The notes under the pieces: model-generated
Databases searched by the model: none
Told to the model about the DNA's origin: nothing
What the model saw: only the letters and a program-made list of their open reading frames with translations
In this document: piece after piece, positions 4,386-60,267 of the stretch
How positions within the stretch are numbered: the stretch's first letter is position 1
Layout: every line of letters begins with the position of its first letter
Assembly: GCA_001599295.1 (NCBI GenBank)
Contig: BCGN01000004.1
Span: 1,120,138-1,184,137, forward strand
From: Sporopachydermia quercuum
Lineage: Eukaryota
DNA length: 64,000 nucleotides
Direction: 5' to 3'
Program-made: the position numbers and the translations under genes

Positions 4386-4557
4386 TTCAATAAATTTCTG
4401 ATAAACCTGAAACAAAAACCAACAAATAGATACTTGTCTTCAATTCACCATATACTTGGAATCTACTGAAACTGTATGAGATATCAACTATCACGATATA
4501 CTTTCTTTGAATCAGTAGTTCTTACTGTATTACTTTTAATGCTGACATGATCGACCT

Positions 4558-4567
4558 GAAAATTTTC
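4558..4567. promoter_or_regulatory. RRPE-like element upstream of PRT1
   Basis: TGAAAATTTT about 175 bp from the ATG. A similar AAATTTTCA occurs upstream of TSR3 at 34256 and 34438. Confidence 0.4.
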
Positions 4568-4857
4568 CATTCTCAAAACAAATGTAAGTGCTGTAGTTTA
4601 CCTCACGTCCTGCGTAATACTAAGCATGAGCTCCTTATTAGATCTTCACATCATAGTAATTACTGACCCTGGATTTGGGACGAATGTTATCTAGAATAAT
4701 ATTTGATGAAACTCATAAATCTTGCCTTATCTGAATATATAATCATTTATTATCATATAACAAATCAACTTTCATGAGCCCAGATGAAAAAGACTTAATT
4801 ATGAATGCTATTTAATTGAATAGAAAAAGATAAAACAGAAAACTCTTTCACTGTTTT

Positions 4858-4956
4858 ACGCGTTTTATGAATGTTTTGATGTTTTAAAGAATCATAGCTG
4901 GTTATTGGCGGTTTAAAGAGTGCAGAAAAGGTGTTTTGACACTGTACTTCACGCGT
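4858..4956. promoter_or_regulatory. Two MCB (MBF) elements upstream of the SPC72-like gene
   Basis: ACGCGT at 4858-4863 and 4951-4956, fitting G1/S expression of a spindle pole body gene. Confidence 0.55.
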
Positions 4957-5110
4957 TACTCTTTTGTTCAATATTCATAATAACAAACAACCTGTTTTCT
5001 ATTGGTAGCTTCTTGAGTATGGTTGAGTCAATTGACAAATTGGAGAACAAATGAAAACTGATGGATGGAATAGGAAGAAGTTATAGTTAATATTTCATGG
5101 TCTTTAAAGG

Positions 5111-8100
5111 ATGGCAGAACAACCACAATCATTAGGAGAAGCAATGTCTATACTGAAAGCCGCAGACTCACCAGATCGAGATCCGGAATCATCAAGTAGT
5201 GGAGTATCCGAAGCTGAAAATACTTTTTTCTCGGACGCTGCAATAGAAACTTCACCGGTGAGACCAAACATCAAGACTAATGTATCTTCTACTGATATTT
5301 TCAATATGTCATTTCCCATGTTAGGTTTGTTGGAATCAGGTGAACCACCTTTGATATCAACCCCAACTCCTGCTCGAACTTATTCGATGGCTGGTAAAAG
5401 CATCGAATTAAGAAAACCTGTGAATATTGCCATATCAAGCTTTGAGCAGAACTCTTCCTTTAGTAGTTTACTGAAAATTTCACCAACAGAAGATACTCGA
5501 GACAATGGAAGCTTGGTAGTGGTGGGTGAAGATTTAGATGCTGATGCTGATGTTGAACCTCTCTCTGAAGTTGAAGGGGAACAAGCTACTGAAGGCAAAT
5601 CCGATAAGAAAACTAATTATGATTATAAAAATAATGGAAGTCAATTATTTAAGGGAGAAAGTGGAGATGAAGTTGGTAGTATTGCTGATGTTGAAAGCTT
5701 TGGCACCGAAGCAAAAATTGATAATCACTCTGAATACGAAGATAAACAAGTTGAATCAAATAATTCATCGGAAAGTAAAGTGGAAAATGAAAGCGAACCT
5801 GAAACTGACGATTTAATAGCAATAAATAGCACGTCTCTCGAAGATATAAACGCCAGTGCAAGATCTATACAAGCAATCCAATCTGATAGTGAAGTAGTTC
5901 AGCTAGAATCATATGTCGAATCATCACCAGAGCCATCAATATCTGATGTCACAGGACATTCTGAAGCAGACTCATCTTTACAAGGATTAGATTCCGTAAC
6001 TAATCCTCTAGGAGATGAGGTAGACGAGAATGAGCTGCAAAGACAACAATCAAATGAGATTAATATTGACACAGTGGAGAAACCAGTATTGCCAATTCCT
6101 GAGCAAACACCGATGAAATGGAGACAACAAGCTCAACCTTCTACGGCAATTAGAAGATCTCTGCGTAAATCATCTATTCAATCAAAGCTTAAAGGATTCA
6201 ACAGTCACTCAAAAGTCTCTTCTGTTTTCGATTCTTCAGAAATTAACCCTCAGAATGCAACTGGAAGTGTTACTGATTCCTATCAAATCAAAGAGCTACA
6301 AAAGAAAATACATGGCTATCAAATACAGTATAAATTGATGGAAACTGTATTAAGAGATGCATTAGATGAAATTGGATTAAATGATTCCAACAGAAAAGAA
6401 GAGCTTGCTTTAAGAGTACCAATTGACAGCTCAGATTTGGCCTCACCAGATACTTCTAGAGTAGAATCACAAAGGATTCAAAAAGAAGTTGAGCTAGAAC
6501 GGCAAAGAAGAAACATTATCACGTTAGAAACCATTATAGAGGAAATGAAAGTAAAACTTGCATACTTTCAGAAAGACATATCTACAAAAAATCAGAATAT
6601 CATGCAATTGGAGCTTTCTAATTTCAACCATAAGAAGATACAGGACATAATAATAACCGCATTGATTTCTGAAACTAAATCTGAGTGTGATATCGACCTA
6701 TTTAATGATGCGCAGACTAAAAGTTTCCTTTCTTTTTTTTTCTCAAGATGGAGTGAATTTTATACAATGTCCAAAAAGGTACAAGAATTAGAGGAGACAC
6801 TGCTTAAAACCCAGAATGATTCCAGGGATTTGATCTCATCACCCGGTGTTAAAGGAGTGTTTATATCTTTGAAAGAACATGACAAATTTAAGAATGCCCT
6901 TCATGAACGTGATGTATTGCAAGAAGAACTTGAAGTTCAGACAATTAAAGTGGAACAACTAACAAACAAACTGAAAAGTTCTTCTGGCATTTCTTATGAT
7001 GAATCTGACGTTGATTTGGATGCTTTAGAAACGACACTAAGGAAAGAACTGGATTCTATAAAAGAAGGATTCCAACAAGAACTAAAGACAATGCAAGACG
7101 AAAACACTAAAGAAGTTAATGAATTAGTTGAAAGATTGAAAACTGAGTCAGAATTGAAAGTCCAGCATGAAATTGAAGTTTCAGCGTTACAGGAAAAATT
7201 CATTGAACTTGAAAATCATGCTCTGGATAATGACCAGTTGTCTAAGAATGTTGATCAACTGCAGACTGAAATACAAGAATTAACAAAAGAACTCCAAGCT
7301 GCACAAATGACTCAAGAGGAGACAGAAAGACAGAAATCAGAAATACAAAAGAACTACTTGCGTACTGTCAGAGAATTGGAAAGTCAGCACGAAGCACGAG
7401 TGGCTTTGGAAAACCAAATAAGTCTGATTTCTAAAGAGTTTAACAATTCTGTTAAACAGAAACAGGATGAAGCGAAGGAGGCAAAAAGTGGGTTCATTTC
7501 TGCAGTTGAAAAACAAAGAAGTCTTTTGGTAGAAAGAAATAAGCTGAAAGTTTTGTTAGACAAACGGGAGAAGGAAAAGAAATCTCTTGAGAGAAATTTA
7601 GAGATTTTAGCAGAGCAGTTAGCGAATCAGTCTAAGGATAATAAATTAAATGAAGAAGAACATGAGCAAGAGCANGAGGATCAAATTCTGTTATTAGAAT
7701 CAAGAATCTTGACTTTTCAAAAAGGCCTCTGCAGTGTTTTCATTGAAATGCTTCAACAATTGAAAAATCATGCTGAGCCTATTGAATACAATAAAATCAA
7801 ACAAAGAATCAATGAACTGAATGGTCTACCTCCAATGAGCAGCGATACCTTGAAGTTAACGGATTCTGTCTCCAGTCGTTTAATTGAATTGATCAAAGCA
7901 TTAGTTAAGCAAACAAATTCCTTGCAGAGACATAGTAATAGTACTGGGAAAGTTAGTGCTTCTATTGAATCTGATGCTGAGTCTGATGCTGAGTCTATCG
8001 TGAGCACTTCAAAAGAAATGAAACAAGAAACTTTGGCTCTTAGGCTTCAAGCTATGACAAAAAAATGGAAAAACGAAAGGGAAGCTAGAAAATCTGAAAA

Positions 8101-14016: not shown

Positions 14017-16043
14017 TCTCCTCTTTAAACAGGGATCATCACCCTTTTAAGGCCCTACGACGAATGGGAATAAAGGAGGCACCAACAGTTATTACAGATC
14101 AATAGTGCTATCTCTAAAAGTAATTAATGACTTCAACCTTGCAAGTATCAGATAATCTATTGTCTTGATAGCATCAATGGTATCCAAAAGAAAAAATTAA
14201 AATACTGCCAGAAACTACTTCTAAATATGTTATTTACGTTTACGTTTGACATTGTTNCTGAATTCTGTTTGTTGATCTGAATGAGTTTGATGTTTATGTT
14301 TCATCTTTTCTTTTCTTTAGTCCGTGACATGTTGAGAAGCAAATCTGGGTTCTAAAGTGTACAGTTCAATCCGTAAATCTTTTATACGTAAGAATTAGAA
14401 TATTGGATTTGTAANAAGTTTTTGACTTAATTTTTAATATCGAGCAAAAANAGATACTCTTATAATCGACGTCCTTTCTCTAATTTTCAATTCATTCTTT
14501 TGTATCTATCTTATCTTATCATTACACCAAATGTTTGACAAGTTAGCTCCTGAGGTTTGATGAATAAATCGAAAAAGAAAATGAGCATTTCTATAATTTT
14601 AGCCCATTCTTTTATCTCTTCCGGAATCGATGAAGGCTTACTTTTTCATTGGAAAGAAGCCTTAGGTCCGTTTACGAATACCCAACCATATAACCATATG
14701 ATTCTCTTACGAGAAGATATTCAGGTTTAATTTTTCATAAATTCTTTTTACTATCAGACTATGGAATGATTATAGATAATAATAAATAAAAAAAATAAAG
14801 TAAAAACGAGATAAGAATGAGACTTATGGAAGGAACAGCATCTCTATTGTTTGATTGTTTACTTCCCAATTAACTATTCAATGATATCCTTCCGTACAAC
14901 AGCTTAGGAGAATAGGCCTTATTATATTTTTTGGTCATCTAGGATTCTCTCAAATAATCGAATCCTACTACATCGTACAACTCTGTGAGCGAGTATAGAG
15001 GTATTTGGTTGGTTGGGAACTATTCAACAATGCAGTNAAATACAGTAGAAGTTAGATTAATAAGGTATGTAAAGGGTTTTGGTTGCAACGAATTGCAACA
15101 AAAACGATAAGATGAAGTTCCAGGGGTTATAACCTTCTGTGACAGGTATTGGAAATGGTTTGAATGGGTGATGGATCATTTGTTTGACGCTTTTTCTGTA
15201 TTTATCGCAACAGGTCTTGATCCCTGATGTTACGTTTGATTGTACAAGCTGTAATTTCTCCTTTTTTATTAGGGTAATTGTATCTTACATTTAACTGAGG
15301 TACTAAATTCATACTTGAATATGTGTTCAAATTATGTCGTATTATTATTATTAATTATCAAATTTCTCACTACGCGTTGACATCTGTGGATAAGTAATGC
15401 ATTGTCAATAGGCAAAAGATATGGCCACTAGAAAGTACCAACTTTACTATATATTCGTTCACTAGAAGCTCTAATTTANACTTGTGAAACTTCCTTGTTC
15501 TTCCCAAAATTACTCCCTACACTTAGCTTCTATTCTTCTGAAGCTGATATATCTCTTCACTTCGTTTCATATTATTAGTGGACTTTATCGCTGTGTAGCT
15601 CAGACAAACAAGAATGAAATAAAGGTGCGATTCTTGAATTGCAGATACATAATTAATGATTACGTAATAAACCATTAGGAAATATTGTATATCCGAATTG
15701 ACTCTAGACAACGACCTGATAAAACATATATGATGAATAGAGAAATTACGCGGCTTCCAATAAAAAAGGCATATGAGTTTTTGTACCAATTTTAAGAGGG
15801 TANGAAATTAATAGACAACACAATTTAGGTGGGATGTAGATTCTAGCGTTCCCATTAATAGAGTATTAAGATTTTGATGCACTACCATTAGCAGCTTCTA
15901 AACTAGATATCAGCAAGCAGGATAGTTAAGCGGTTAGAGACTTCGATTAAGAAGAAGCCAGTGAATAGGACAATCGAATAATGCTCAATTGAGAAACATT
16001 TGCGGGACGTACAAATTAAAGCGTATTATCATTATTTATCAAA

Positions 16044-28312: not shown

Positions 28313-31300
28313 TCATATAACAGGAAAGTTTTCCTCTGCTAATCTTGTAAAGTTTTCGTAACATTGGATTGCCCATTCAGAAGTAACTAATCGAGCAGGC
28401 CTCTTCCGTCTAGTATGACAATATGTTTGTTAGTTATCAGTCTTCTGAGGATCGTTCAGTCAGTCAAAGAACAAAAATATTAATATTAATTCAAGTAAAA
28501 TATAACTTACAATGCTTCAATTTGCCTGATTAGAGGTAGCCTTGATGAATTTGAATCTGAAATCACTACTGACAATAAATCATTATGAATAGTACTCGTA
28601 ATATTGGCTCCCATGAACTGACAACAACGAGCAGCTTTTTCCAGCCGGAAATCCTTCTCAAACAATTCCGACTGGGAAGGCAAACCTTTTCTCTGTTCCT
28701 CATTCAAATTAAAATTCTTCTCCGCTTGGCTGTTGAAATCAGTAAACACGGTTAATCCTCGCAAAGGCAATACATCATGTAATAAATCTGATATTTCAGT
28801 ATCTAACACAGTTTTACTAACAGTCTTATCAGTTAGCTCAATCCTCTTCAACAATTCACTTAACTCATCCATATTTACAGCAAGAGTGTAACTATCCCCA
28901 AACTTGTCAACATGATTTTGAGCAGCTTTCATTGTTTCCTCTCTTGCAAAATGATAATGGGTAGGCTCTATTGGAATCATCATCTTCCTAGATATACAAT
29001 CTAAAATCCAACAAGGTTTCACTATATCATAAGTGCCCTTTCTAATCAGCGTAACTGCTTTCACAACATTTAAATCGGATATAATGAACAATTGCTCGCC
29101 AGGTGCTAATCTAACATTGGGACTATATGCCAATGTCCCACCGTTTCTCACAACAAGTTTCTCAATATCTTTCAGGAACATTCTTTTAGGTTTGACCATA
29201 TCAGATAAAATATCTGAAAAAACACACAAATAGCTTGTTAGTATTAATACAGCCTGATTTTAGTATGAGTTTATGGACAGAAATTGCTCACCCGAAGTTG
29301 CATTTCATCTTCCATTCATAGGTCATACAATTAAGAATAACAGTACTTACAAAAATAATGACCTTGGAAAATAAATGTTTCTTTCCATTTACTAGCATCC
29401 TCCTTCCCTTTATAATCAACTACTTTATATTCTTTCTTTCTTTTCTTCATCTGCTTTCTTCTATTCTCCGGTATCTCGGCCGAGTTCTCTTCATGCTTTG
29501 TTTCTACTTCATTTCTTAACNAAATGAACTCTGCAATATTAATAAAATCACATTCAGTTAGTAAGGTTTTTAACCATAACGCTTTATCCATAGCAGAATT
29601 AAACACGTCACAGCCATCATACAATTAATAAATAACATACCAGAATATGACAAACAAGACTTCCAATCTTTATCTTCTCTTATTTTCCTAAACCTTGGGA
29701 ATCTCAAACTCATTCCAGATCTATATTGTGAGCTATAAATCACTTGAGATGCTTTAATTTCTATGACTATACTATCCATTGGTTTGATCCAAACGTCAGG
29801 TCGTTCGTAATTATTATTTGGGCCGGCTAACTCCATATATTGATTAACTTCTAAATTGGCATCCCATTTATGCCATTTACCTTCGGTTAAATGTTGAATT
29901 CTCGAATAATCAACAACAGAAAATCCTCCCCCTACTTTACAAAATGACCAAAACTTATTATAATCACTACTATATTCATCANCACTTGCTCGCACCCCAC
30001 ATAAGAAACTCGCAAGTTTTCTGCTACGGCTTCCCTGTCCATAAAAGCCTCCAATGATACATAAATCTAAATTCTCACCGTATTCTTCCATATATTCCGG
30101 TTTCACTTTGATCCAATCATCATTTCTTTCATTCACCTTATATTTACTCAAAGGATTCTTTATAACCAGGCCCTCGCATGACATTTCAACTATTTTCTTT
30201 AAATTGTCATAGATTTCATCTGGTTTAGTAGCAATAGTAAAAGGAAGAACTTTCAAATAACCTTCTTTATCCTTTAGGATTCTTCTTAATGCTGCTTTCC
30301 TATCTCTAAGGGCATAGTTAACCAAAGGCTTATCATTCAAATAGACTAAATCAAATGCAATAAACATTGGTCTAGTCATACCGGCATCGAGACTTTCTTG
30401 AATAGCAGCAGTTTTCAAAGTACCAAAAGGGATAATCAAATCGTTTTCTGGATCATAAGCGACCATTTCTCCATCAATAATACAGTTTCTTACATTTGGT
30501 AGGAAAGCATCTGTTAAATGCTTTGTTAAACTGCCATTTTTATCATCTAAGCTACTGCCATACAGATAAGAGTAATCTTTTGCCTTTCTACTCCAGAATA
30601 CAAACTTGGCACCATAATTATCCATATGAAGTTGAATTCTTTCTCCGTCTATTTTCTCTTCCATATAGAATCCACTTTCCGGCATTTTGGAAACCATTTT
30701 ACTATAGGAGTANTTCTGAAATTGTGCAAGTTGTGGTTGAAAACAAGACATGAGGGATACTTCTTGACGTTTTGGTGATAATGTGATTTCCGGATTGTAT
30801 AATTCGTAGCACACTCGTTTCAGATTTGATGTCACATTGAATAGCCCCATAGCTTCAGGATGGAATAAGTTGAGAAATGTTCTCTCTGATGCACCTAAAT
30901 GCATAACTAAAACAATAAATAGTTAGTAGCGAAGAGATGAATAGGTAGCAAATTAGCAGTACTTACATTTGAGAATGATATTGATTAACCATTTCATCTC
31001 ATCTACATTCATATTATCGTAAAACCATTTTAATACTTCTAGTTGATCATTACTATAATAAACATAAAATGTTAGTTCAAATAAACCGAGTCTTCCCTTG
31101 ATTTATGCCAATTAAATTTCAATTTCCATTTCCGCGAAAAGATTAGTTTGATATGAGGTATGCAAGTGAAACCAAGAGGATCCGCCAGAAGCTCAAGCTC
31201 CAATCATAACATATCATTGCTGTTCTTTTTCTCTTTCTCTACCTCCCAGCAAGCTGAGAAGGCAATTTCTAAACCTCTAAAAGCTGGCTTATTGTGGAAA

Positions 31301-33100: not shown

Positions 33101-34221
33101 TTATAGTGATACGTTTTGAATCTTTTGTGCCAGTTCTGTCTCTTCGGCTTCATTAGAGTATTCATGGGTTTCATTATCATCCTCATCTTTTTCCTTTCGC
33201 TCGCCTTCTTCCTCTTCCTTTTCCTTTTCCTCTTGCTCTTGCTCTTGCTCTTGCTCTTGCTCTTGCTCTTGCTCTTGCTCTTGCTCTTGCTCTTGCTCTT
33301 GCTCTTCACTATCGCTCACTTGCATGCGATTTGTATTTCCTTGCATCCAAATATCTTCATCTTGATTAGTCCTTTTTCGTTCTTCAAATTCCTCATCTAA
33401 TTTTTGCAACCATGCAGCTTCCGCTTCTTTCACACTATCACTATCAGTACATTGCTGATACACTTCAATCAGTTCTCTATTGATTTCTAAAAATGATGGT
33501 CCATACGAAAAATGAGACAATAACTCTTCTGCCCATTCTAAATGTCCTACAATAGCAAAACATGCTGCTAATGCCTCAACACAATTTAACCTCCAGGGCT
33601 TTCCGTAATTTACTGTATTAGCAGCAACTAGATACGGCACTGAAAAGTACAGGTTAGTAATCCCATATTAGTCAATCAATCCGAACCTCCATCGCTAATA
33701 TTTGTTCCCCAGTATTCGAAATCAAACATACGTAGTCTTTCATGTTTACCTCCAATTTTTGAAAAAGGAATTTCTTCCAATCTTGCCCATGAACATTCAA
33801 CCACTGCTGCACCTGACTCTTCAACTACTGGTCGATCGTCAGGACAAACCACTCCTTTACCGTTAGGACTAAATTTATATTGTTAGCATCGCCTTTCAAG
33901 TGCTGTTTTCTTGCACATTTATAATAAATAACCCATTATTAAGTAATCCTTCACTTACGTAACAATAATTCCCTGAAATTTCTGTCCAACTCTCAAAGAT
34001 CTAATCAAACCAAGTCTCTCTAATTTCTTACCACTACATCGTTTGGGATCACACTGATCAAAATCCCACATCGCCAGCTTCACAGGAAATTTTTGCCCAC
34101 CCACTCCGGATCCGTGATGTTTTGTTTCTCTTTGTTTTCTTCCATGATGGTGTCCTCCTCCGGCTCCTTTTNCTTTGCCTGTTTTATGACTTTCATGTTC
34201 CTTATTCTTACCCTTAGCCAT
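33101..34221 (-). CDS. TSR3: 18S rRNA aminocarboxypropyltransferase; exons 34221-33959, 33868-33732, 33639-33101
   Basis: [51 protein letters not shown]; two canonical introns. Confidence 0.95.
33230..33306. repeat. Perfect hexanucleotide microsatellite (CTCTTG) x ~13, encoding an (EQ)n tract in Tsr3
   Basis: Uninterrupted tandem repeat read directly from the sequence. Confidence 0.95.
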
Positions 34222-39087: not shown

Positions 39088-40059
39088 TTACTGAGGACTA
39101 CCTCTTCCACCGAGACCAAATTGCTGAGCCATTTGTTGAAGTTGAGGATCATTTAATAATGATTGCATAGCTGCTGGATTTGACATCATTTGTTGAGCGG
39201 CTTGCATTAATTGAGGGTTACTGAGTAAAGAGGCGAAATCGAAGCCGGGAGCTCCTCCTGCTCCACCTGCCCCACCGGCCCCACCAAACATTGAACCTAA
39301 AGCAGACAAATCAGGGAATCCACCAGCACCAGCTCCTGGACCAGCGGCTCTGTTTTCTGTTGAAGTTGAATCAATCTCAGTAGAAGGAGTAGGGTTAGAA
39401 GCACCTGAATCAGCAAGTTCTTCAACACGTCTTTTAGCTGTTTCGTACCCTCTCTTCATGGCTTCAGAACAAGCATCACCTTCAACTTCCATACCCTTTT
39501 TATAAGCTTCCATTGATCCAGCAGCATCACCTAAAGCATATCTAGCAAGGCCTAATCTTGAGTAAGCCTTAGGATATCTAGGGTCGTGTTCTATAGCTTT
39601 TTGAGCATCCTTAACGGCTAGTTCATGCTTTCTTAAAGAAGAATAAGCAGCAGCTCTATTAGATAAATAAACTGGGTTGGTTGGAACTAAAGCAATGGCT
39701 TCTGAATACTTCTCAACAGCTTCTTCATATTTCTTTTGAGCCATAAGCTTGTTACCAGCGATCTTCAACTCATCAGCTTCAGCGGTCTTGTCAACTTCTG
39801 ATTTCTCAACTTTTACTGGTATTTCAACACTGTCACTAGCAGGTGTTTCATCCTTGCTATTACTTTCATAAGCAGCAAGTATATCGGTAAGGGATGTTGA
39901 TTTGAGCTCATACGAATCAATATCACTTTCCTCCACATCGAAAACTTCAGTAATACAGTCGATAGCCACATCTAATGATTCAGCATCATCTGACTTCTTG
40001 GCTGCCTCTTTTAGAAAGTTGATAATAGCCACAGCTGTGGTCTTTTCATTAATAGCCAT
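39088..40059 (-). CDS. SGT2: TPR co-chaperone of the GET pathway
   Basis: ESLDVAIDCI dimerisation domain, three TPRs (YLSNRAAAYS, KAYSRLG), Gln/Met-rich STI1 tail; likely start MAINEK at 40059. Confidence 0.95.
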   Translation of the reverse strand: MAINEKTTAVAIINFLKEAAKKSDDAESLDVAIDCITEVFDVEESDIDSYELKSTSLTDILAAYESNSKDETPASDSVEIPVKVEKSEVDKTAEADELKIAGNKLMAQKKYEEAVEKYSEAIALVPTNPVYLSNRAAAYSSLRKHELAVKDAQKAIEHDPRYPKAYSRLGLARYALGDAAGSMEAYKKGMEVEGDACSEAMKRGYETAKRRVEELADSGASNPTPSTEIDSTSTENRAAGPGAGAGGFPDLSALGSMFGGAGGAGGAGGAPGFDFASLLSNPQLMQAAQQMMSNPAAMQSLLNDPQLQQMAQQFGLGGRGSPQ

Positions 40060-40259
40060 CTTCAATAATATCTCTGATCTAGATCTACTAAGGCAATGCA
40101 CTACTAATACAATACGTTCAATTAATCCTCAACAATTAAATAATTCACAACACAAATATATTGCTTCTAATATTTCTGATCGCTCAATCAACTCTCTTCT
40201 CTCTTACGTCTTCTCTGAATGTATATACAAGCATATATTCTGAACTGATCATCAAACAT

Positions 40260-41775
40260 AATTTAAGCACACAGACCTATATCTGCGGACTGTGCTTGCC
40301 ACGTTCAGGCAATTCACACTGATCTCCTGAAGGCCCCACTACTTTTCCTTTCCTTTTTGGTTTCAAGGTCAAGCTTCCCCTCTTTGGACAAACCACCCGA
40401 ACACCTTAAATACATCATGTCTCACTCTATTACCCCAGAGTTTGCTGCTGGGATAAGATGGAGATTACAACGAATGACAGAGTGAGTGGTTAAAATCATT
40501 GTGAGCTGATTGAACAGGGTCAAAGGAGCAAGCTTGAGTTTTTATTTTGGATTGGTAATTTAGTATATTGTGTGTAAGGGGAATTTCTTGAAAGGTAGCT
40601 GGATAAGAAGTGAAGAGAGGACATGTAAAAGTTGAGAAATTCATGAACAAACGGGAGTGGTACTGGATTTGTAGCTTGAGTATGATGAATAAAAAGACTT
40701 GCCCTTTCTCTCTTTTCCATTCACTCTGATTTTAACATTGATTGATAAGAGGATGTTTTTTTTTGCAAAGTTATTTTGAAGAGTAAATACCCATGCTAAT
40801 GTCAACAATTGATATCTCATACAAACTGATTTAGTTCACTTCATTCTTAATACCCACGGCATCACATTTTTTTACTAATATTAAGGTTGTAGACGGTTAT
40901 TGACAATTTTCTTGCTGTTAGCGAAGGAAATGAGACCCAATTAGTAAGATGGTAAGGTAGGATGCCTTCTTGATGGTCATTTCAATGGATTGATTACATC
41001 TATTATGAATAACAAAATTTTTAGAGCCCATTCCCAAGTAAAACGTCTGGCGGTTAAAGAATTAGCTTTCACTGACTGAATAAAGATGTGAAGCTATTGA
41101 ATTTGAAATTGAGCGGATTGATTCTGATGAAGGTAGATAGATGGTCACCAGGGTTAAAAAGAGGAAAGCGTTTAGAACTGTTAGTTCAATATTCATCCTG
41201 TATCCAAAGTTTCTAGTAACTTATATTACATTTTCACAATTTATATTGTCTACCTTCCTAAATACTGCCGCTGTTCTATGTCTATTTCTACCCAATAGCT
41301 CTAATATATCAATTCTATGGACTATATGAATTTGACACTCCGCAACCTTTCTCATTTTTATATGCAGCGAATCTGTACAAAAATCTTAATTTCCGCAGTT
41401 AAAGATATAAGGTTTGTTAAATATTTCCTATTTGAGGTATTCTCTATTATTGATAACTCAGAAAGTACCGGGCAATACATAGGAAATCAAGAACTCAAAA
41501 TAAAAGTTGGAAATGGGCTAGTTCATCAAGTCTTATAAAAATCATTGAAAGAATCCCTCTTTTTCAATTTCTTANATAGAGAGAGTCATGTTGTTTGTTC
41601 TTCTCTGATCTCCAGTTAGATTAACCTTAAGTAAAACGGCAACTAATAATTGAATAGGCAGGCTATCTCTTGGTTATATACTCCCCAAAAAGAACACTAT
41701 AACTAGCAATATTATTATTGCTTCTCTAAGTGTTAGTCAATAATTTGTCAATATTATCTGTGCTTATTTTTTCTT
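40260..41775 (+). ncRNA. Large structured non-coding RNA, candidate telomerase RNA; ends approximate
   Basis: No credible ORF; more than 10 mutually nested helices, with G-U pairs mostly favouring the + strand; template-like CACCCGAACACC (40394-40405) between a boundary hairpin and a GAATG-containing hairpin. Confidence 0.6.
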
Positions 41776-41886
41776 TCCTCATAACCTAGCTTTATCAGTT
41801 TTTCTATACTAGTCGACAGATCAACAATGGAAATCAACTTACCTTTTGGCGCTAAGATTTCATCTAAAGTATTTAACGTTCTGGAA

Positions 41887-41893
41887 TGAGTCA
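41887..41893. promoter_or_regulatory. Gcn4 site upstream of ARO8
   Basis: TGAGTCA about 290 bp upstream of an amino-acid biosynthesis gene. Confidence 0.55.
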
Positions 41894-42183
41894 AATAGTG
41901 TAACCTTATTTATTCCATAATTCAAAGTAAAAATTATAAAACCTACCAAAAATCTTACAAAGGAGTTNGTTCGTCCTGAAAAACCTTCATATTTAATTTT
42001 GCTAAAGGTGGATTTGGTCTTATTGAATAAATTGGAGTCAAAGTCCAAGTGAAGAGAAGATTCTGTTTGTTTGGTGCATCTTTTTGTAATCAAATTCTTG
42101 ATTAATAAATTGGGGAACTAATAACTGAAAATCTAGCATTTGTTTATTTGTTATAATCATCAACCGGAAAGACAATTTTCATC

Positions 42184-43710
42184 ATGACAGTTGCGAAGGA
42201 TTCCCAATTGCCAAAGGCAAAGGATATGTCCCACCACTTATCTGTGGAGGCTCAATCCAGAAGATCATCACCATTGAAAACTGCATTCAAATACTTTAAT
42301 AACCCCGATATTGTTTTCTTAGGTGGTGGTTTACCTCTTTCAGATTATTTCCCATTCAAAGAGATTGATTTCCAAGCACCTAAACCACCATTTGCTGAAG
42401 GAATTTCCAAGGTCCCAAGTGGAGATGAAAAGAATGATGACACTGTTTTTGCATCAGTTCCTCGTTCATCAGACTTAGCCAAATCGACAATCTCACACAA
42501 TGGATATGATGATGTTTTGCTCAAGAACTCACTGCAATACGGCTTCACTGAAGGTCAACCAGCTTTAAGACAATTCATTTATGATCATACTAAATTGATC
42601 CACAATATTCCTTACGAAGATTGGAATGTTGTTAGTACTGTTGGTAACACCCAAGCCTGGGATGCAACTCTTAGAACCTTCTGTTCTAGAGGTGAAACCA
42701 TTCTCGTTGAAGAGTACTCTTTCTCCTCTGCTTTAGAAACTGCTCATGCTCAAGGTGTTACTTGTTTCCCTCTTCCTATGGATAATCATGGTATAATTCC
42801 TGAAAAGTTAGATGAAATTTTGNCCAACTGGAACTATAATGATGACAAATCAAACTTCCCTAAACTTTTATATACAATTCCTACTGGTCAAAACCCTACT
42901 GGCTCTACTTTATCTTCTGAAAGAAGAAAGGCTATTTATGATGTCTGTTCCAAGTTTGACATTATCATTATTGAGGATGAACCATACTATTTCTTACAAA
43001 TGGAAACTTACACCCAAGATGCAGAAGCTCGTGCTACTCAAGGTGTTGCTGATTCTAAAGAATTTTTGTCCTCTTTAGTCAAATCTTTTTTGAGCTTTGA
43101 TGTAGATGGTAGAGTTCTTCGTTTAGACTCTTTCTCCAAGGTCATCGCCCCAGGTTCTCGTATTGGCTGGATTGTTGGTCAAGAAAAGCTCTTAGAACGC
43201 TTTGTTAGGTTACATGAAGTATCAATTCAAAGTCCTTCTGGTTTCGCTCAAAGTTCCATTCTGGGTTTATTGGCAAGATGGGGACAATCAGGTTACCTTG
43301 ATTGGTTGATTGGCCTTCGTAAGGAGTATACTCACAAAAGAGACGTTGCCATCGATGCTGTTCAAAACAATGTACCTAAATCAGTTGCTTCATGGGTTCC
43401 ACCTACTGCTGGTATGTTTTTCACTGTTCAAATTGACGCATCAAAGCATCCTAATTTTGCTACTGAATTCAATTCCGATCCAGCAAAAGTTGAAGAAGCT
43501 ATCTATGAAGTTGGTTTGAAGATTGGAACTTTGATGATTCCTGGTTCCTGGTTTGCAGTTTCTGAAAACACTGAACCTCCTCAAGAAATCGTTGTTAGTG
43601 ATCCTAACATTATTTTCTTCCGAGGTACTTATGCAGCTGTACCATTGGACCAACTTGTCTTAGGTATTACGAGATTCGGTGAAGCAGTGAAGACTGTATA
43701 TGGTTTATAA
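42184..43710 (+). CDS. ARO8: Aromatic/aminoadipate aminotransferase I
   Basis: LGGGLP, SLQYG, PTGQNPTG, EDEPYYFLQ, PLP lysine in DSFSKVIAPG. Confidence 0.96.
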   Translation: MTVAKDSQLPKAKDMSHHLSVEAQSRRSSPLKTAFKYFNNPDIVFLGGGLPLSDYFPFKEIDFQAPKPPFAEGISKVPSGDEKNDDTVFASVPRSSDLAKSTISHNGYDDVLLKNSLQYGFTEGQPALRQFIYDHTKLIHNIPYEDWNVVSTVGNTQAWDATLRTFCSRGETILVEEYSFSSALETAHAQGVTCFPLPMDNHGIIPEKLDEILXNWNYNDDKSNFPKLLYTIPTGQNPTGSTLSSERRKAIYDVCSKFDIIIIEDEPYYFLQMETYTQDAEARATQGVADSKEFLSSLVKSFLSFDVDGRVLRLDSFSKVIAPGSRIGWIVGQEKLLERFVRLHEVSIQSPSGFAQSSILGLLARWGQSGYLDWLIGLRKEYTHKRDVAIDAVQNNVPKSVASWVPPTAGMFFTVQIDASKHPNFATEFNSDPAKVEEAIYEVGLKIGTLMIPGSWFAVSENTEPPQEIVVSDPNIIFFRGTYAAVPLDQLVLGITRFGEAVKTVYGL

Positions 43711-44323: not shown

Positions 44324-47300
44324 ATGCATATTTTGAAGCTCCCGTGGCTCGGCCACAATGATGAGCACAGAGCTTTCGAAGTGTACTCAGTAAGCATATC
44401 AGGAGATGGGACACGATTGGCTTCAGGAGGACTTGATGGTAAAGTGAAGATATGGTCTACAAGTGACTCTGTATACTCAGAATTACCAAATGAAGAGAAT
44501 AGCACAAACAAACCCGAAGTTTTGAAAAAGCCATTGTGCAGCATGAGCACGCATACAGGTGCGGTTACAGTGGTTCGATTCTCACCTAATGGGAAATACC
44601 TAGCAACAGGATCTGATGATAGAGTGCTGTTGATATGGGAAAAAGATGAGGATTTTGTTAGATCGGAGTTTGGCTCAATGGGAGAAGAAGATATAGAACA
44701 TTGGGCGGTAAGGAAACGTTTAGTTGGTCATGAGAATGATATTCAAGATATCGCATGGAGTCCGGACTCTAGTATGGTGGTGTCAGTTGGGTTAGATAGT
44801 TCAATTATTGTTTGGAATGGGAATTCTTTCGAGAAAATCAAACAACTCAATATTCATCGGAGTTTAGTGAAGGGAGTTGTGTTTGATCCTGCCAATAAGT
44901 ATTTTGCTACAGCTTCTGACGATCGAACGGTTCGTATAATTAGATATCATAAGACATCTCCGACCGATATTACATTCACTCAGGAACATATTGTAAAGGA
45001 TCCTTTCACCAATTCACCACTTACTTCTTATTTCAAAAGACTTTCATGGTCTCCTGATGGAAGTTTTATTGCAGCACCTTCTGCAACAAATGGACCTGTT
45101 ACCTCAGTATCTATTATAAACAGAGGTAATTGGAGCACAGATGTTTCATTAATTGGTCATGATGCACCTTGTGATGTCACATGTTTTTCTCCAAGATTAT
45201 ACACAACTAAAAGATCAACTAAACTTGTTTTACCGGACAAACAGAAACGATTAAAGGAACCTATAATGAATCTAGTTGCAACTGGTGGTCAAGATTCTAC
45301 ACTCGCTATATGGGCTACATCCAGCCCAGCACCTGTAATGGTGGCGAATGATTTGACCACGAAACCGATAACCGATATAACATGGTCTAATGATGGAAGG
45401 AATATTTTTGTTAGTTCCCTTGACGGATCAATCACTGCATTATGTTTCAATGATGGAGAATTAGGATATGTGATGTCAATGGAACAAAACGAAATCGAAT
45501 TACATAAATATGGTGGAAATAATGATTCATTGTCTTTTCCTGAATCAGTAGCTCAATTGTTATTAGAAGATAAAGCTACAAATGCTGAGAAGCAAGCAAA
45601 TGAATCACGAATGGATCAACTCATGTTAACAAACACTACTTCCATTGCTNGCTCGCCGACTATTAAGGATTCAACTGGTAACCCTGTCCACCCTATTTCA
45701 GGACCATCATTGCCATCTCTGCATCAATCGTTAATTCCATCGGCTAGCAAAGTGATTGAACATGAACAAAAACATTCTGTCAAATTACAAGCTCAAAAAG
45801 TGTCGTTGACTAAAGATGGTCGTAAGAGGGTTGCCCCACTGTTGGTTTCATCAGGGCCAAGTGTTAAGAGAGCAACTTTGGCAACTAAATCGACCTCAAA
45901 ACTGTCAAAGGTATCTTCCTTCTCTTCTACTGACTCGGTAATTCCAACTTCTTGTGAAGGCTCCTCGCTGTTAACAAAGAAATCAACACTTAAGGCTAAG
46001 AAAGCAGATTTATCCTATCCTTCTTACACTCTTCCAAGAAATGGATTACAAGTGATAGTTATGGGTCAAAGGAAAAGAGAACCGGTGAAAGAGGATTTTG
46101 AAGTAGCAGCTCAGCAGGATCAACACGATGAAACGGAAGAGAATCAAATCAATAAAATAAGAACAGTGACAAGAATTAATGATGATTTTCGAAATAGTAA
46201 TGCAATTGATGCTTCAAGTCTTACATTATCAATTTTCAAATCGAAAAACAAAGGAAATAGAGGCAAAACGATAGGAAAAAATAACAATTCAGCAGATAAT
46301 NCTAACATTGGCTTTATTCGTGATGCATTATACACTCCTGAAGTCATTTACTCTGAACCTAAGCTTAGAGGTGCCAAAAGGCTCGTATTCAAAAGTCAAG
46401 CCGCTTCAATTACTGATGAGGCTAAGCAGTTTATCCCACTTACTTCTTTTCTAGAAGTAACAAACTTTGATGAGGACATTGATGGTACTACTGGAAATAA
46501 CGATAACAACCATAGTAATAGTTTTAATACTGGTAATAATAATAATAATAGCAGCACCGCTAATAATAGTAATAATGTCACTTCAGATCATTTAGAAGCT
46601 GCCAAGATAGTTGGAATTAAAAACGGTAATGTTCAATTCACTAATTTTATTGGCAGCAATGTTATTCGAGCTGTTGGTATTGAAGGATCATTTTGGGCAT
46701 TAGCAACTAATAAATCAGAGATTTATGTTTATTCTTCAAATGGGGCCCTTATGTTGCCTCCATTAGAATTAGATAGTTGCGGAATTGCAATTTTTGAAGC
46801 TAGAGGTAAATTTTTACTTGCTGTAACGAATAATGGACTAGTTCAATGCTGGAATATAAAACAGAGGATTGCGTTGTATGATGAATCTATTTCACTAGTG
46901 CCTATTATTGATTCTGAAACATATCTCAATGTACCAGTTGGGTCTTCTGCCAAAGTTAATAAATTTGAGATAAATCGTAAGATTGTTTATGCTACAATCA
47001 CTGAGAAAGGTGTGCCGATATTTCAACTTGATAATGGANATGTCTTTTGTTTCAATAATGATTTGCAATGTTGGTTGAGGATTGGGGATGAAGATCTTAT
47101 GAACGATGAAATGATTGGATTTCACTCAACTTTGCTATCGTTTTTAATGGCTAGAAAGAGAAGGCTTTTGGATAAGAAGGACGGTGAGAATGATAATAAT
47201 GGTGATGATGATGAAGCAAAGAATGGTCATCATGAAGATAATGTGCCAAATGTTTCAACTAATAATATTGAGAACGATCATAAACAAGATTCCATCTATG

Positions 47301-47455
47301 ATAAACGATCAATGTTTCTGGAAAGAGTTATATCTTCACTTTGGTCATTAGACATGTCAGATTGCGAGGATATGAACAACATTAAGAAGGTCTATCGAAC
47401 GTATCTACAAAATAATAACATTGGAAACAAACTTGAAGAGCTGGAAAGCATTTAG
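44324..47455 (+). CDS. HIR1: HIR complex histone chaperone subunit (HIRA family)
   Basis: N-terminal WD40 (RLASGGLDG, FDPANKYFATASDDR), B-domain TKDGRKRVAP, C-terminal Hira-like region. Confidence 0.92.
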   Translation: MHILKLPWLGHNDEHRAFEVYSVSISGDGTRLASGGLDGKVKIWSTSDSVYSELPNEENSTNKPEVLKKPLCSMSTHTGAVTVVRFSPNGKYLATGSDDRVLLIWEKDEDFVRSEFGSMGEEDIEHWAVRKRLVGHENDIQDIAWSPDSSMVVSVGLDSSIIVWNGNSFEKIKQLNIHRSLVKGVVFDPANKYFATASDDRTVRIIRYHKTSPTDITFTQEHIVKDPFTNSPLTSYFKRLSWSPDGSFIAAPSATNGPVTSVSIINRGNWSTDVSLIGHDAPCDVTCFSPRLYTTKRSTKLVLPDKQKRLKEPIMNLVATGGQDSTLAIWATSSPAPVMVANDLTTKPITDITWSNDGRNIFVSSLDGSITALCFNDGELGYVMSMEQNEIELHKYGGNNDSLSFPESVAQLLLEDKATNAEKQANESRMDQLMLTNTTSIAXSPTIKDSTGNPVHPISGPSLPSLHQSLIPSASKVIEHEQKHSVKLQAQKVSLTKDGRKRVAPLLVSSGPSVKRATLATKSTSKLSKVSSFSSTDSVIPTSCEGSSLLTKKSTLKAKKADLSYPSYTLPRNGLQVIVMGQRKREPVKEDFEVAAQQDQHDETEENQINKIRTVTRINDDFRNSNAIDASSLTLSIFKSKNKGNRGKTIGKNNNSADNXNIGFIRDALYTPEVIYSEPKLRGAKRLVFKSQAASITDEAKQFIPLTSFLEVTNFDEDIDGTTGNNDNNHSNSFNTGNNNNNSSTANNSNNVTSDHLEAAKIVGIKNGNVQFTNFIGSNVIRAVGIEGSFWALATNKSEIYVYSSNGALMLPPLELDSCGIAIFEARGKFLLAVTNNGLVQCWNIKQRIALYDESISLVPIIDSETYLNVPVGSSAKVNKFEINRKIVYATITEKGVPIFQLDNGXVFCFNNDLQCWLRIGDEDLMNDEMIGFHSTLLSFLMARKRRLLDKKDGENDNNGDDDEAKNGHHEDNVPNVSTNNIENDHKQDSIYDKRSMFLERVISSLWSLDMSDCEDMNNIKKVYRTYLQNNNIGNKLEELESI

Positions 47456-57912: not shown

Positions 57913-58980
57913 TTTCGATTCAAAGTTACGTGGTGTTATAAGTTTGTGTAGAAGTTGCAAAAACGAAGATGTAACGTTTCTTCTAAATTTGCATGATAAT
58001 AATCCTGCACTTTCTATAACTCAACGCCAGGAAAATAACAGAAAAACTTTGTGATTGATTTGAATCGTTGTAATTGGCTTCCTGCCTTACTATGTGTCTT
58101 TGGTGTAAGAATTAGATAAGGCCCTTGTGAAATTCCGTTCACCCTAAGCTTTTTGGCAGCAATCCTAAGCTATAGACGAGATTTTGAAACAGTTAGACTG
58201 GCAACTGACCAGTGAATAGCGTAACGAATGCAGTAAATATTGGAATTAGATGAGCTCACTGGAATATCCCTTTCGCTGGTAGTCGGTACACAAGATAACA
58301 ATTCTATTGAATTCTGTGAGGTATGAGCTTTTTTTAATACTTTTAAGATTGAGACCAATTTCACTCTGTATGTATATCTTGCCTTTTCTTTTCTATTGGG
58401 CAACATGGAGAATGGTATCTGTAGAAATCAAAAGAGAGGAATTAAGTAAGTAAACAGAAACACAAGAGCAGAAAGAAAAATAAAGAGAGTTGAGTTTCTT
58501 TAAGAATTTGTCACGGAATCGTCTGCCGATAGAATCAAATGCAAGTAACGCCGTAAACCTTGACATAATTAGTATGAGGGAAAAGGGACGTTAACTCCAA
58601 ACTAAAGTTACTGATCGCAGTTTACATATTTGACTAGGGCAAAATGTCATTTATCCCTTATAAAATATTTTAAAGTTTTGGTAAACATCTCTTAGGCCTG
58701 TATGACTTGCACTTTAACGAAATTCCATGACATATCTATCACTCACTCAAATACTTGATAAGTTGTTAGTTAAAGTTGTATGAAAGAGTATTGTTGATGT
58801 TCAACTTGAGGGCCTCGACACAATTTTATCTCTTCAGTTGTAAGTTTTAAAGAAGTACGTAAAAGCTAATATTCTAAATTAGAGCTAAATTTATTTGCAA
58901 GACTTCAGCGATATAAGAATCTCCTCACAAGGAACGCAGGTTGAGTTTGCTGAAATTGGTTTGGTGGTGCAAGAAGAATA

Positions 58981-59004
58981 TTTCAATTGTCATGACAATT
59001 GAAA
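58981..59004. repeat. 24-bp perfect palindrome
   Basis: TTTCAATTGTCA|TGACAATTGAAA with no spacer. Confidence 0.9.
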
Positions 59005-60267
59005 ACTTTATGAGAATAAATTCTTAGTACGATATTTAGTTGATACGACTATTCCCAAAACCATGACTACTCATGGTATAAGCATTAGAAGAGAATACGA
59101 GGTATTTTATCTCCGAAGGTTATCAATAGATGCGGTTCTATTGTAATTGAGTATGGAATGTAATCACTGAAGAGTAAGTACAGTGCTAAGTCAATTTATG
59201 TATAGAAGAGTAACAATACTTTTTATAAAAAGAACTTGTAAATAGTAGGAAGCTGTCCCGCGAAACACCCAGCAGAGGGTTAACGCTCGGATCAAATAGT
59301 GAAAAGAGTTCGCACCGGATGGTTCCTCATAATAACTGCACCGTGTACCGTTATCTCATCCTCTTTAGTGAAAGTAATATGGATATTATAAGTAACTTAA
59401 AATCGGACTCTTGATAGTACTGAAAGATATCTATATCAATAAAAACCTGTTATCTTGTAAATATTACTTTTACAATTGCTATTCTTCTTGTCACGCAAGC
59501 ATCTCGAGATTCTCGGTAGGACATGTAGAAGATGTACCAGTAAGCATGTCATATCAGCAATCGCCTTGCTTTTACTCAATTTGTAGTTGGTGTGTTTATA
59601 CTCAAATCGTGGGATTCTTACTTCTTGAAAGCTGTGATTGTTCTTATCTTTACAACTTCTCCTTTCGGGATACTGCTGTTCTTCCAAACTATCTATCCCA
59701 TTGAAGATCATGCCATGTTATATCATTGTACATTAAAATTTCTCCATCGCATTTTTATAATTATTATTACGTCATCGTTAAATAATTTTCTATCATTTAT
59801 TTTATCACGTAATCTGTAAAACGCCACTTCTCACTCAGGCGACTAAGGTATCGTTTCTCATTATCAACTACCTACCTTATATGATATTGAGCTATTTTGT
59901 TGATTATTCTATTTGTTGGCCACATAGATATATATGTATTGTTGATAAAATTGAATACTGACATTGTGCCTGATATAGATCAAAAATTTAGCGTATTAGC
60001 TGATAGTGTTAATATATCAACTGCTACTTCAATTGAGCTCTGACTTTATTTTCTCACTCTGGGCATCGATCAGTAAGGTGGGTTGATGTTGTTAGGATAT
60101 TTACTGTAAATACGTTAGTTGTTGAAGCTATAGTTTCAATTTCTACATCTATTAGAATAGACAAAGATTACACACTCTGTAAATTTGGATCAAACTTTGT
60201 TGTAGTTTGATGAATATTGCTGCGGCCCTGTTAGCATTTGGTCTCTGGATTTAGGAAGTGTAAACCA

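Follow-up and report, generated by a model that had tools for sequence, protein, structure and literature searches.

Telomerase RNA (TER) evolves fast, and most sequenced budding yeasts are still without an annotated TER (PMC6115765). Here we consider a possible TER gene in the gap between an SGT2-like and an ARO8-like gene of Sporopachydermia quercuum (contig BCGN01000004.1), within a stretch of 64,000 nucleotides (nt) that was analysed as a whole, is called the window below and provides all coordinates; an initial annotation had placed a TER gene of about 1.5 kb there. The described system against which this locus is mainly set is the TER of Hansenula polymorpha (HpTER), proven by immunoprecipitation, knockout, rapid amplification of cDNA ends (RACE) and activity assays (Smekalova et al. 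2013; PMC3851723); all statements on HpTER follow the available part of that report. HpTER has an 8-nt repeat, GGGTGGCG; its 5' end lies 168 nt before the template (170-187), with a boundary hairpin at 128-163. Its Est1 hairpin (252-332) begins 65 nt past the template and contains GAAUG as CS2 and CUUCA-A-GG as CS2a. Further on come a pseudoknot (368-457), a three-way junction (526-576) and a non-canonical Sm-like site (683-690). The splicing signals follow, with the 5' splice site (GUGAGU) at 690, the branch site (UACUAAC) at 720 and the 3' splice site at 738; the mature forms measure 680-689 nt (PMC3851723). The gene lies between PDD4 and a homologue of aromatic aminotransferase I, the latter downstream (PMC3851723); that is, in one other yeast a proven TER adjoins an ARO8 orthologue and points towards it.

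The TER1 RNAs of CTG-clade yeasts (Gunisova et al. 2009; Hsu et al. 2007) are those on which GAAUG CS2 and CS2a were defined, and splice signals have been noted downstream of their Sm site (both as cited in the available part of PMC3851723). In Schizosaccharomyces pombe TER1, the Sm site lies at or within a few nt of the 5' splice site (PMC4299874), and the first splicing step makes the mature end, with suboptimal intron signals (PMC4299874; Box et al. 2008). Saccharomyces cerevisiae TLC1 (RF01050) gives the order boundary helix, template, Est1 arm, pseudoknot, three-way junction and Sm site.

The gap considered here (40063-42183; 2121 nt) is free of credible open reading frames (ORFs), has a GC content of 33.3% (35.7% for the whole window) and is flanked by divergently transcribed genes, SGT2-like on the minus and ARO8-like on the plus strand. 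We propose, as a tentative reading whose chance we put a little under even, that its SGT2-proximal quarter (about 40240-40782, + strand) is a compact TER gene of the H. polymorpha type. The case rests on motifs, their order and rarity, and a published TER in a matching neighbourhood, and every function assigned below is putative. The elements are the following.

40220-40229, no strand: palindromic TATA-like element TGTATATACA, read from the sequence
40358-40395, + strand: hairpin abutting the template-like element, candidate template boundary, from the minimum-free-energy fold
40394-40405, + strand: template-like element CACCCGAACACC, in which a 4-nt terminal repeat follows an 8-nt unit
40440-40533, + strand: long hairpin, candidate Est1 arm (fold z = -0.67)
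40539-40548, + strand: U5-A-U4 tract, its core UUUUUAUU complementary to 40688-40695
40688-40695, + strand: A-rich tract AAUAAAAA, with AUGAUGA just before it
40756-40764, + strand: U9 tract
40773-40779, + strand: Sm-like site AUUUUGA, with 3 nt between it and the 5' splice-like site
40783-40788, + strand: 5' splice-like site GUAAAU, candidate spliceosomal cleavage point
40873-40879, + strand: branch-site-like UACUAAU with U7 just before it (together 40867-40879)
40890-40892, + strand: UAG, candidate 3' splice site; the branch-like site begins 17 nt before it

According to this model, RNA polymerase II would start downstream of the TATA-like palindrome at 40220-40229, and transcription would run towards ARO8. 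The hairpin at 40358-40395 would halt reverse transcription at the 5' edge of the template (40394/6-40405), from which telomerase would add GGGTGTTC repeats. The GAAUG-bearing hairpin at 40440-40533 would serve as the Est1 arm, and the U-rich (40539-40548) and A-rich (40688-40695) tracts as parts of a pseudoknot. The 3' end would be formed by the first splicing step at GUAAAU (40783), just past the Sm-like site at 40773-40779, with UACUAAU (40873) as the branch site and UAG (40890) as the 3' splice site. Because the best 3'-end signals lie at 40773-40892, the mature RNA is predicted at about 0.5 kb, not 1.5 kb.

The individual elements fit this scheme to different degrees. The palindrome TGTATATACA could serve SGT2 and the + strand RNA alike, and the template-like element starts 165-172 nt past it. 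The candidate boundary hairpin reaches up to the template-like element or into its first 2 nt, and the 111-nt segment tested folds weakly (z = +0.36). From CACCCGAACACC, a telomere repeat GGGTGTTC is predicted, a unit that fits the TGNNNGGG class of 8-mers, given for seven species in the available part of a published table (PMC7857110). One of the three GAATG occurrences on the + strand of the gap lies 66 nt beyond the template-like element, as GAAUG at 40472-40476 in the internal loop of the long hairpin; UCAAAGG (40520-40526), 43 nt further on, matches CS2a (CUUCA-A-GG) only partly. The initial annotation had pointed to a long hairpin containing GAATG, and it is indeed present in the fold of 40440-40545; likewise, the complementary U-rich and A-rich tracts that it had listed (UUUUUAUU and AAUAAAAA) exist and stand in the right order for a TER pseudoknot. 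It is speculative that pairing of CAAGCU with AGCUUG, together with the U/A helix, gives a pseudoknot topology with an unusually placed insertion of 124 nt. A 9-nt direct repeat, AGCUUGAGU, occurs at 40531-40539 and 40673-40681 (+) and flanks the two tracts. The stretch 40163-40613 forms a GC island, with values of 0.41-0.43 against 0.337 +/- 0.033 in 375 intergenic 300-nt segments.

The comparison with HpTER was made by published feature coordinates and descriptions rather than by alignment, and within the available part of that source the two have much in common. Both adjoin an ARO8 orthologue and point at it, both have an 8-nt repeat with a GGGTG core (GGGTGGCG and the predicted GGGTGTTC), and in both the template, putative in the candidate like its start and its boundary, lies about 170 nt from the start with a boundary hairpin abutting it. 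A GAAUG-bearing Est1 hairpin, likewise putative in the candidate, follows about 65 nt after the template. Next come a non-canonical Sm-like site and the splice signals, of which the candidate has look-alikes in the same order, with the 3' splice site close to the branch site; HpTER is small among budding-yeast TERs, and so would the candidate be. They differ in the splice signals themselves (GUGAGU against GUAAAU, UACUAAC against UACUAAU) and in the distance from 5' splice site to branch site (30 nt in HpTER, 90 nt here), and HpTER has a pseudoknot and a three-way junction, whereas convincing counterparts were not found in the candidate. The CTG-clade TER1 RNAs are unlike the candidate in size (1.5-2 kb). 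Telomere repeats in that clade measure 16-25 nt. The closeness of Sm-like and 5' splice-like sites is shared with S. pombe TER1, which belongs to a distant lineage, has another repeat and a 1.2-kb RNA, and whose mode of 3'-end formation is proposed for the candidate from motifs only. TLC1 has the order of elements proposed for the candidate. Its RNA measures 1.16 kb, its 3' end is not formed by splicing and its Sm site is the canonical AAUUUUUGG; the candidate gave no match to its Rfam model.

The rarity of the motif set was estimated with a composite pattern, consisting of a template-like element, a GAATG 30-200 nt on, and a U-run plus splice module 200-1800 nt on. It matched three sites in 545,110 strand-bases (the window and 20 AT-rich loci), namely the window gap (+), the ARO8-upstream gap of a Brettanomyces locus (+) and one coding-region site. 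In the same 545,110 strand-bases, there were six 1.5-unit elements of the TGNNNGGG class. A strict 3'-end module, defined as an Sm site AU4-6GR at most 30 nt from a 5' splice-like site, a branch site and YAG, was met 8 times in 1,527,678 strand-bases, three of the eight having a template-like element and GAATG upstream. No validated TER was at hand to gauge the sensitivity of these patterns.

The Brettanomyces locus (L006) is a metagenome contig assigned to Brettanomyces bruxellensis, a member of the Pichiaceae, by a neighbouring protein 98% identical to a named one. It reads coiled-coil (ADIP-domain) gene, a 2.8-kb gap (3218-5991) in which no ATG ORF exceeds 56 amino acids, ARO8 and HIR1. PDD4, the neighbour of HpTER, we take to be ATG25, a coiled-coil protein. 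On the ARO8 strand (+), the gap holds CCACCAACCAC at 4018-4028, three GAAUG at 4153-4188, UUCAAAAGG at 4224 and a canonical-looking intron module (U7-ACCG|GUAAGC at 4940, UACUAAC at 4994, CAG at 5004), the same order of elements as in the window candidate. The gap, syntenic with the HpTER locus, probably holds an unannotated B. bruxellensis TER (about 3900-4939, +). The candidate region folds with z = -0.92 on the + and -1.20 on the minus strand, and a literature search found no Brettanomyces telomere repeat.

One may go further and propose that the candidate is the smallest budding-yeast TER so far (about 0.5 kb), from a lineage without a described TER, that it is cut by the spliceosome at a non-canonical GUAAAU beside AUUUUGA, and that the linkage TER-ARO8-HIR1 is old, shared with the Pichiaceae (Ogataea, Brettanomyces) and usable to find TERs in many yeast genomes that lack annotation; this wider proposition we regard as rather unlikely. 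If real, the candidate is a further TER of an already known type. It would then add one more case of spliceosomal 3'-end formation, a 0.5-kb TER would be a useful minimal model, and the rule "upstream of ARO8-HIR1, on the ARO8 strand", joined to the motif set, would ease the search for TERs in the Pichiaceae and perhaps in their neighbours.

The synteny was followed across yeasts through ARO8. Homologues of the window gene reach at most 64-66% identity, so the libraries searched hold no close relative. An ARO8 alignment, used to scan metagenome contigs, found 80 loci, none above 60% in ARO8; SGT2 was upstream in 0 of the 80 and HIR1 downstream in 7. Five loci were assigned to the CTG clade from named protein neighbours, all with HIR1 downstream of ARO8. 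In four of them (L001, L002, L003, L005), a RAD5-like gene stands 0.7-1.4 kb upstream of ARO8, and in L007 a leucine-rich-repeat protein gene stands 0.75 kb upstream; unlike the window, they have no large gap beside ARO8, and these distances leave no room for a TER1 of 1.5-2 kb. The suggestion in the initial annotation that ARO8 flanks TER1 in some CTG-clade yeasts was thus not borne out in these five loci, and our literature search found nothing that ties telomerase RNA to ARO8 in Candida or to SGT2 in yeast. An assumed origin of the window in a CTG-Ser clade yeast is probably wrong as well. In ARO8, one CTG codon falls at a Leu that is invariant in 21 of 21 homologues (residue 117) and another at an Asn/Ser column (residue 360); in HIR1 (gene 44324-47455), residues 102 and 506 are CTG codons in hydrophobic columns. 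Three of the four informative CTG codons in the window thus sit where Leu or another hydrophobic residue is usual, so that CTG is probably read as Leu and the organism would not belong to that clade.

A number of results weigh against a compact TER in this gap. The predicted repeat GGGTGTTC is itself absent from parts 1 and 2 of the three parts of a 204-species table (PMC7857110). A strict scan for an H-type triple-helix pseudoknot gave no candidate downstream of the template; it had one match per strand, both elsewhere, and shuffled sequences scored equally well. The whole stretch 40240-40782 folds worse than shuffled sequence (z = +2.16; 98 of 100 shuffles at least as well), as does 40240-40943 (z = +2.61; 20 of 20), and five sub-elements range from z = -0.79 to +1.78. 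The highest of these values belongs to the stretch where a three-way junction would be expected (40697-40782; only -6.3 kcal/mol). By the published criteria, stem 2 of this junction follows stem 1 without a linker, one A parts stem 2 from stem 3, the first and third pairs of stem 3 have A/U, a GU linker leads to stem 1, and the junction lies about 30 nt before the Sm site (PMC2094081). A manual, and as such weak, check of the single sequence by eye against Brown et al. (PMC2094081) showed no such junction, and an element like the P6.1 stem was not found.

The splice signals, the neighbourhood and the counts add to these objections. GUAAAU has A at +5 where the consensus has G. The window itself offers a host reference in two probable introns on the minus strand, one in a TSR3-like gene (about 33960-33642; UACUAAC at 33659, CAG at 33642) and one at the 5' end of the gene at 28507-29199 (29350-29216; GUAAGU at 29350, UACUAAC at 29243, CAG at 29216). 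Both use UACUAAC, and the one with a placeable 5' site uses GUAAGU, so that GUAAAU and UACUAAU are each one base off the signals of these introns. The left neighbour is SGT2, against PDD4 at HpTER in the part of that report available, and the candidate, at about 0.5 kb, would be shorter than the 680-689 nt given there. The five loci assigned to the CTG clade lack the TER-ARO8 layout, as does a Saccharomyces-like locus, and the window ARO8 forms a long branch beside Lachancea, outside the Pichiaceae cluster; the ARO8 tree gives no placement for the organism. Between the window gap and the Brettanomyces gap, blastn found at best 24.3 bits, against 22.3-32.2 in 20 shuffles. The composite patterns were written after the window site and the + strand of the Brettanomyces gap had been seen, so that the counts are not blind; loose template-like elements occur at 0.6-0.9 per kb, and two of the seven strict modules other than that of the window also have a template-like element and GAATG upstream.

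The further features needed for weighing the alternatives are these.

39088-40062, minus strand: SGT2-like gene (SGTA_dimer and TPR)
42184-43710, plus strand: ARO8-like class I/II aminotransferase gene
40264-40298, + strand: 5' hairpin with arms TAAGCACA and TGTGCTTG, in the minimum-free-energy and centroid folds
40948-40977, minus strand: second template-like element ACCAUCAAGAAGGCAUCCUACCUUACCAUC, a 24-nt unit plus a 6-nt terminal repeat
41887-41893, no strand: TGAGTCA, Gcn4-type site; the ARO8 start follows about 290 nt downstream

The motifs named in the initial annotation were all found where it had placed them, including TAAGCACA at 40264-40271, TGTGCTTG at 40291-40298 and TGTGCTTA at 41759-41766, followed by TTTTTTC. 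Overall, its coordinates are accurate and its significance was overstated. Its "extensive long-range pairing" is at chance level, with 10 perfect 8-bp complementary pairs 1300-1700 nt apart in the gap against 9.1 +/- 3.9 in 200 shuffles. The terminal pairing of TAAGCACA with TGTGCTTA has its sequences in place and is no better than chance, since an 8-bp match between the terminal 100-nt ends was seen in 27 of 233 sliding 1516-nt segments from four gaps. In the same way, its C/A-rich 1.5-unit repeat is present at 40394-40405, and repeats of this kind also occur in all three of three control gaps. The 5' hairpin was ruled out as the boundary helix; it lies 95 nt away from the template-like element. 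With 20 mononucleotide shuffles, the proposed 1516-nt RNA folds at z = +0.70; under mononucleotide shuffling, its reverse complement reaches -1.19 and one control gap -1.88, and local 120-nt windows average -0.07 on the + and 0.00 on the minus strand. Rfam gave no match at gathering score in the whole window, neither to a telomerase family nor to another RNA class; a match to another class had been named in the initial annotation as speaking against a TER. At E up to 10, the interval 39900-42300 gave two chance-level matches only, and no telomerase or snoRNA (small nucleolar RNA) family. Rfam holds Sacc_telomerase plus other telomerase models, and such silence is expected for a yeast TER beyond Saccharomyces or the narrow groups modelled. 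The pairing and Sm arguments of the initial annotation do not carry the case for a TER, and support for the 1.5-kb length and the 3' end at 41775 is not above chance. What stands of it is that a TER on the + strand adjoining ARO8 is plausible, and a serious possibility given the precedent in H. polymorpha and the motifs in their order.

These results also bear on what else the gap may be. The simplest alternative is an ordinary long divergent spacer that holds the SGT2 and ARO8 promoters and no TER, the motifs being chance matches from directed searching; we judge it about as likely as the compact TER, its own chance being somewhat below even. The initial annotation was right that the 2.1-kb gap has no credible ORF: the longest ATG/GTG/TTG ORF fully within it has 77 amino acids, and a Pfam scan of 20 stop-to-stop frames gave nothing at E < 0.04, so that no protein relics were seen. 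Its description of the region as otherwise compact fails, since the same 64 kb holds two further divergent ORF-free gaps of at least 2 kb, 14017-16043 (2027 nt) and 57913-60267 (2355 nt), with none of 13 frames giving a Pfam match above the curated cut-off, and ORFs of at least 150 amino acids span about 55% of the window; long spacers are normal for the genome of this window. In line with a mere spacer, the gap folds no better than shuffles on either strand, has no Rfam match, shows pairing, boundary-helix and repeat features at chance level, and allows plausible TER stories to be built on both strands. A Saccharomyces-like locus, too, has a telomere-like "template" upstream of ARO8, which is a false positive there. 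The TATA-like elements and the TGAGTCA site also suit promoters; the latter likely sits in the ARO8 promoter, a weak argument with 17 such sites in the window. On the other hand, the gap stands to ARO8 as the proven TER does in H. polymorpha, as far as the available part of that report describes it. The composite of motifs in order is rare, with two of its 3 sites in 545 kb of strand lying in gaps upstream of ARO8, and spacer DNA of the window does not usually show a GC island like that at 40163-40613. If the gap is only a spacer, it is a warning that short TER motifs assemble into a convincing gene on either strand of AT-rich DNA.

Other forms of an RNA gene appear far less probable than the compact + strand TER. 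A + strand TER of about 1.5 kb (40260-41775), closed by TAAGCACA and TGTGCTTA and ending at the U tract at 41767, would share the 5' elements of the compact model and the size of published CTG-clade TER1 genes (1.5-2 kb; S1 table of PMC5033589), and the Brettanomyces candidate would itself be about 1 kb or more. We nevertheless hold this form to be very improbable: its terminal 8-bp match is no more than chance, 27 of 233 control segments having one too, its fold z is +0.70, the U tract has no G and is followed by no ordered 5' splice-like and branch-like sites, and 40900-41800 has the GC content of spacer (0.29-0.355). Some other non-coding transcript, such as an intron-bearing long non-coding RNA (lncRNA) or a snoRNA host using the signals at 40783-40892, would account for the splice-like module and the GC island, and intronic snoRNAs in non-coding hosts are described as common in non-Saccharomyces yeasts in the available part of PMC5033589. 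No snoRNA or other Rfam family appeared at E up to 10, and no C/D box pair with a terminal stem was seen by eye, which leaves this explanation hardly credible.

We find it equally hard to credit a TER on the minus strand, with its template at 40977-40948 and GATGGTAAGGTAGGATGCCTTCTT as the telomere repeat. Its element ACCAUCAAGAAGGCAUCCUACCUUACCAUC is the longest telomere-like repeat of the unit-plus-own-start kind in the gap and was the sole window match of our first telomere-likeness filter. GATGGTAAGGTAGGATGCCTTCTT has GGTAGGATG in common with the putative Spathaspora passalidarum repeat, and its GGTAAGG and GGATG cores recur in repeats of Saccharomycopsis and Candida, as listed in the available parts of the table (PMC7857110); besides, a GAAUG lies about 100 nt downstream of this template and an 8-bp helix ends 2 nt before it. 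Such elements become common, however, once overlapping motifs are counted, AT-rich yeast loci (208,555 bases) holding 92 of them and the window, in a strict variant of that filter, three. The helix is matched by 387 of 2000 shuffles, downstream of the template there is neither an Sm-like site nor a splice module, A-tracts precede U-tracts in the wrong order for a pseudoknot, the strand folds at z = +1.49, and the orientation towards ARO8 is the opposite of that given for HpTER in the available part of its report. The 30-mer at 40948-40977 occurs once in the window and has no match in the metagenome and genome contig libraries; no sub-string of the 24-mer unit was found in the 204-species table (PMC7857110) as far as its available parts go, the only literature match being an unrelated plant primer.

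The first filter was rejected as a signal unique to the window, given the 92 sites found when overlaps are counted. It had also flagged the ARO8-upstream region of a Saccharomyces-like contig, where a 24-nt repeat element is a false positive. Upstream of ARO8 in the Saccharomyces-like loci L013 (L013:4880-5520) and L012, what we saw by eye is presumably a tRNA gene and a Ty-delta-like long terminal repeat (LTR).

A separate set of signals lies at 41954-41726 on the minus strand of the window, with a canonical Sm-like GAUUUUUGG at 41954-41946, GUAAGU at 41842, GACUAAC at 41738 and UAG at about 41727. It resembles the 3' end of a TER, yet it lies in the ARO8 promoter region without room for an RNA body, and these intron-like signals, used by no ORF, may be a chance product.

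Around the gap, a HIR1-like gene lies downstream of ARO8 and a VPS9-ankyrin gene on the far side of SGT2. Comparison of the window with four contig sets gave two source-like assemblies and an identical piece of 242 nt (X4), with no relative and no telomeric loose ends among them. The window has no tRNA genes, and none of its tandem repeats is telomere-like; one of them is a (TCTTGC)n microsatellite of 16.7 copies at 33207-33306, which overlaps a minus-strand acidic (EQ)n ORF.

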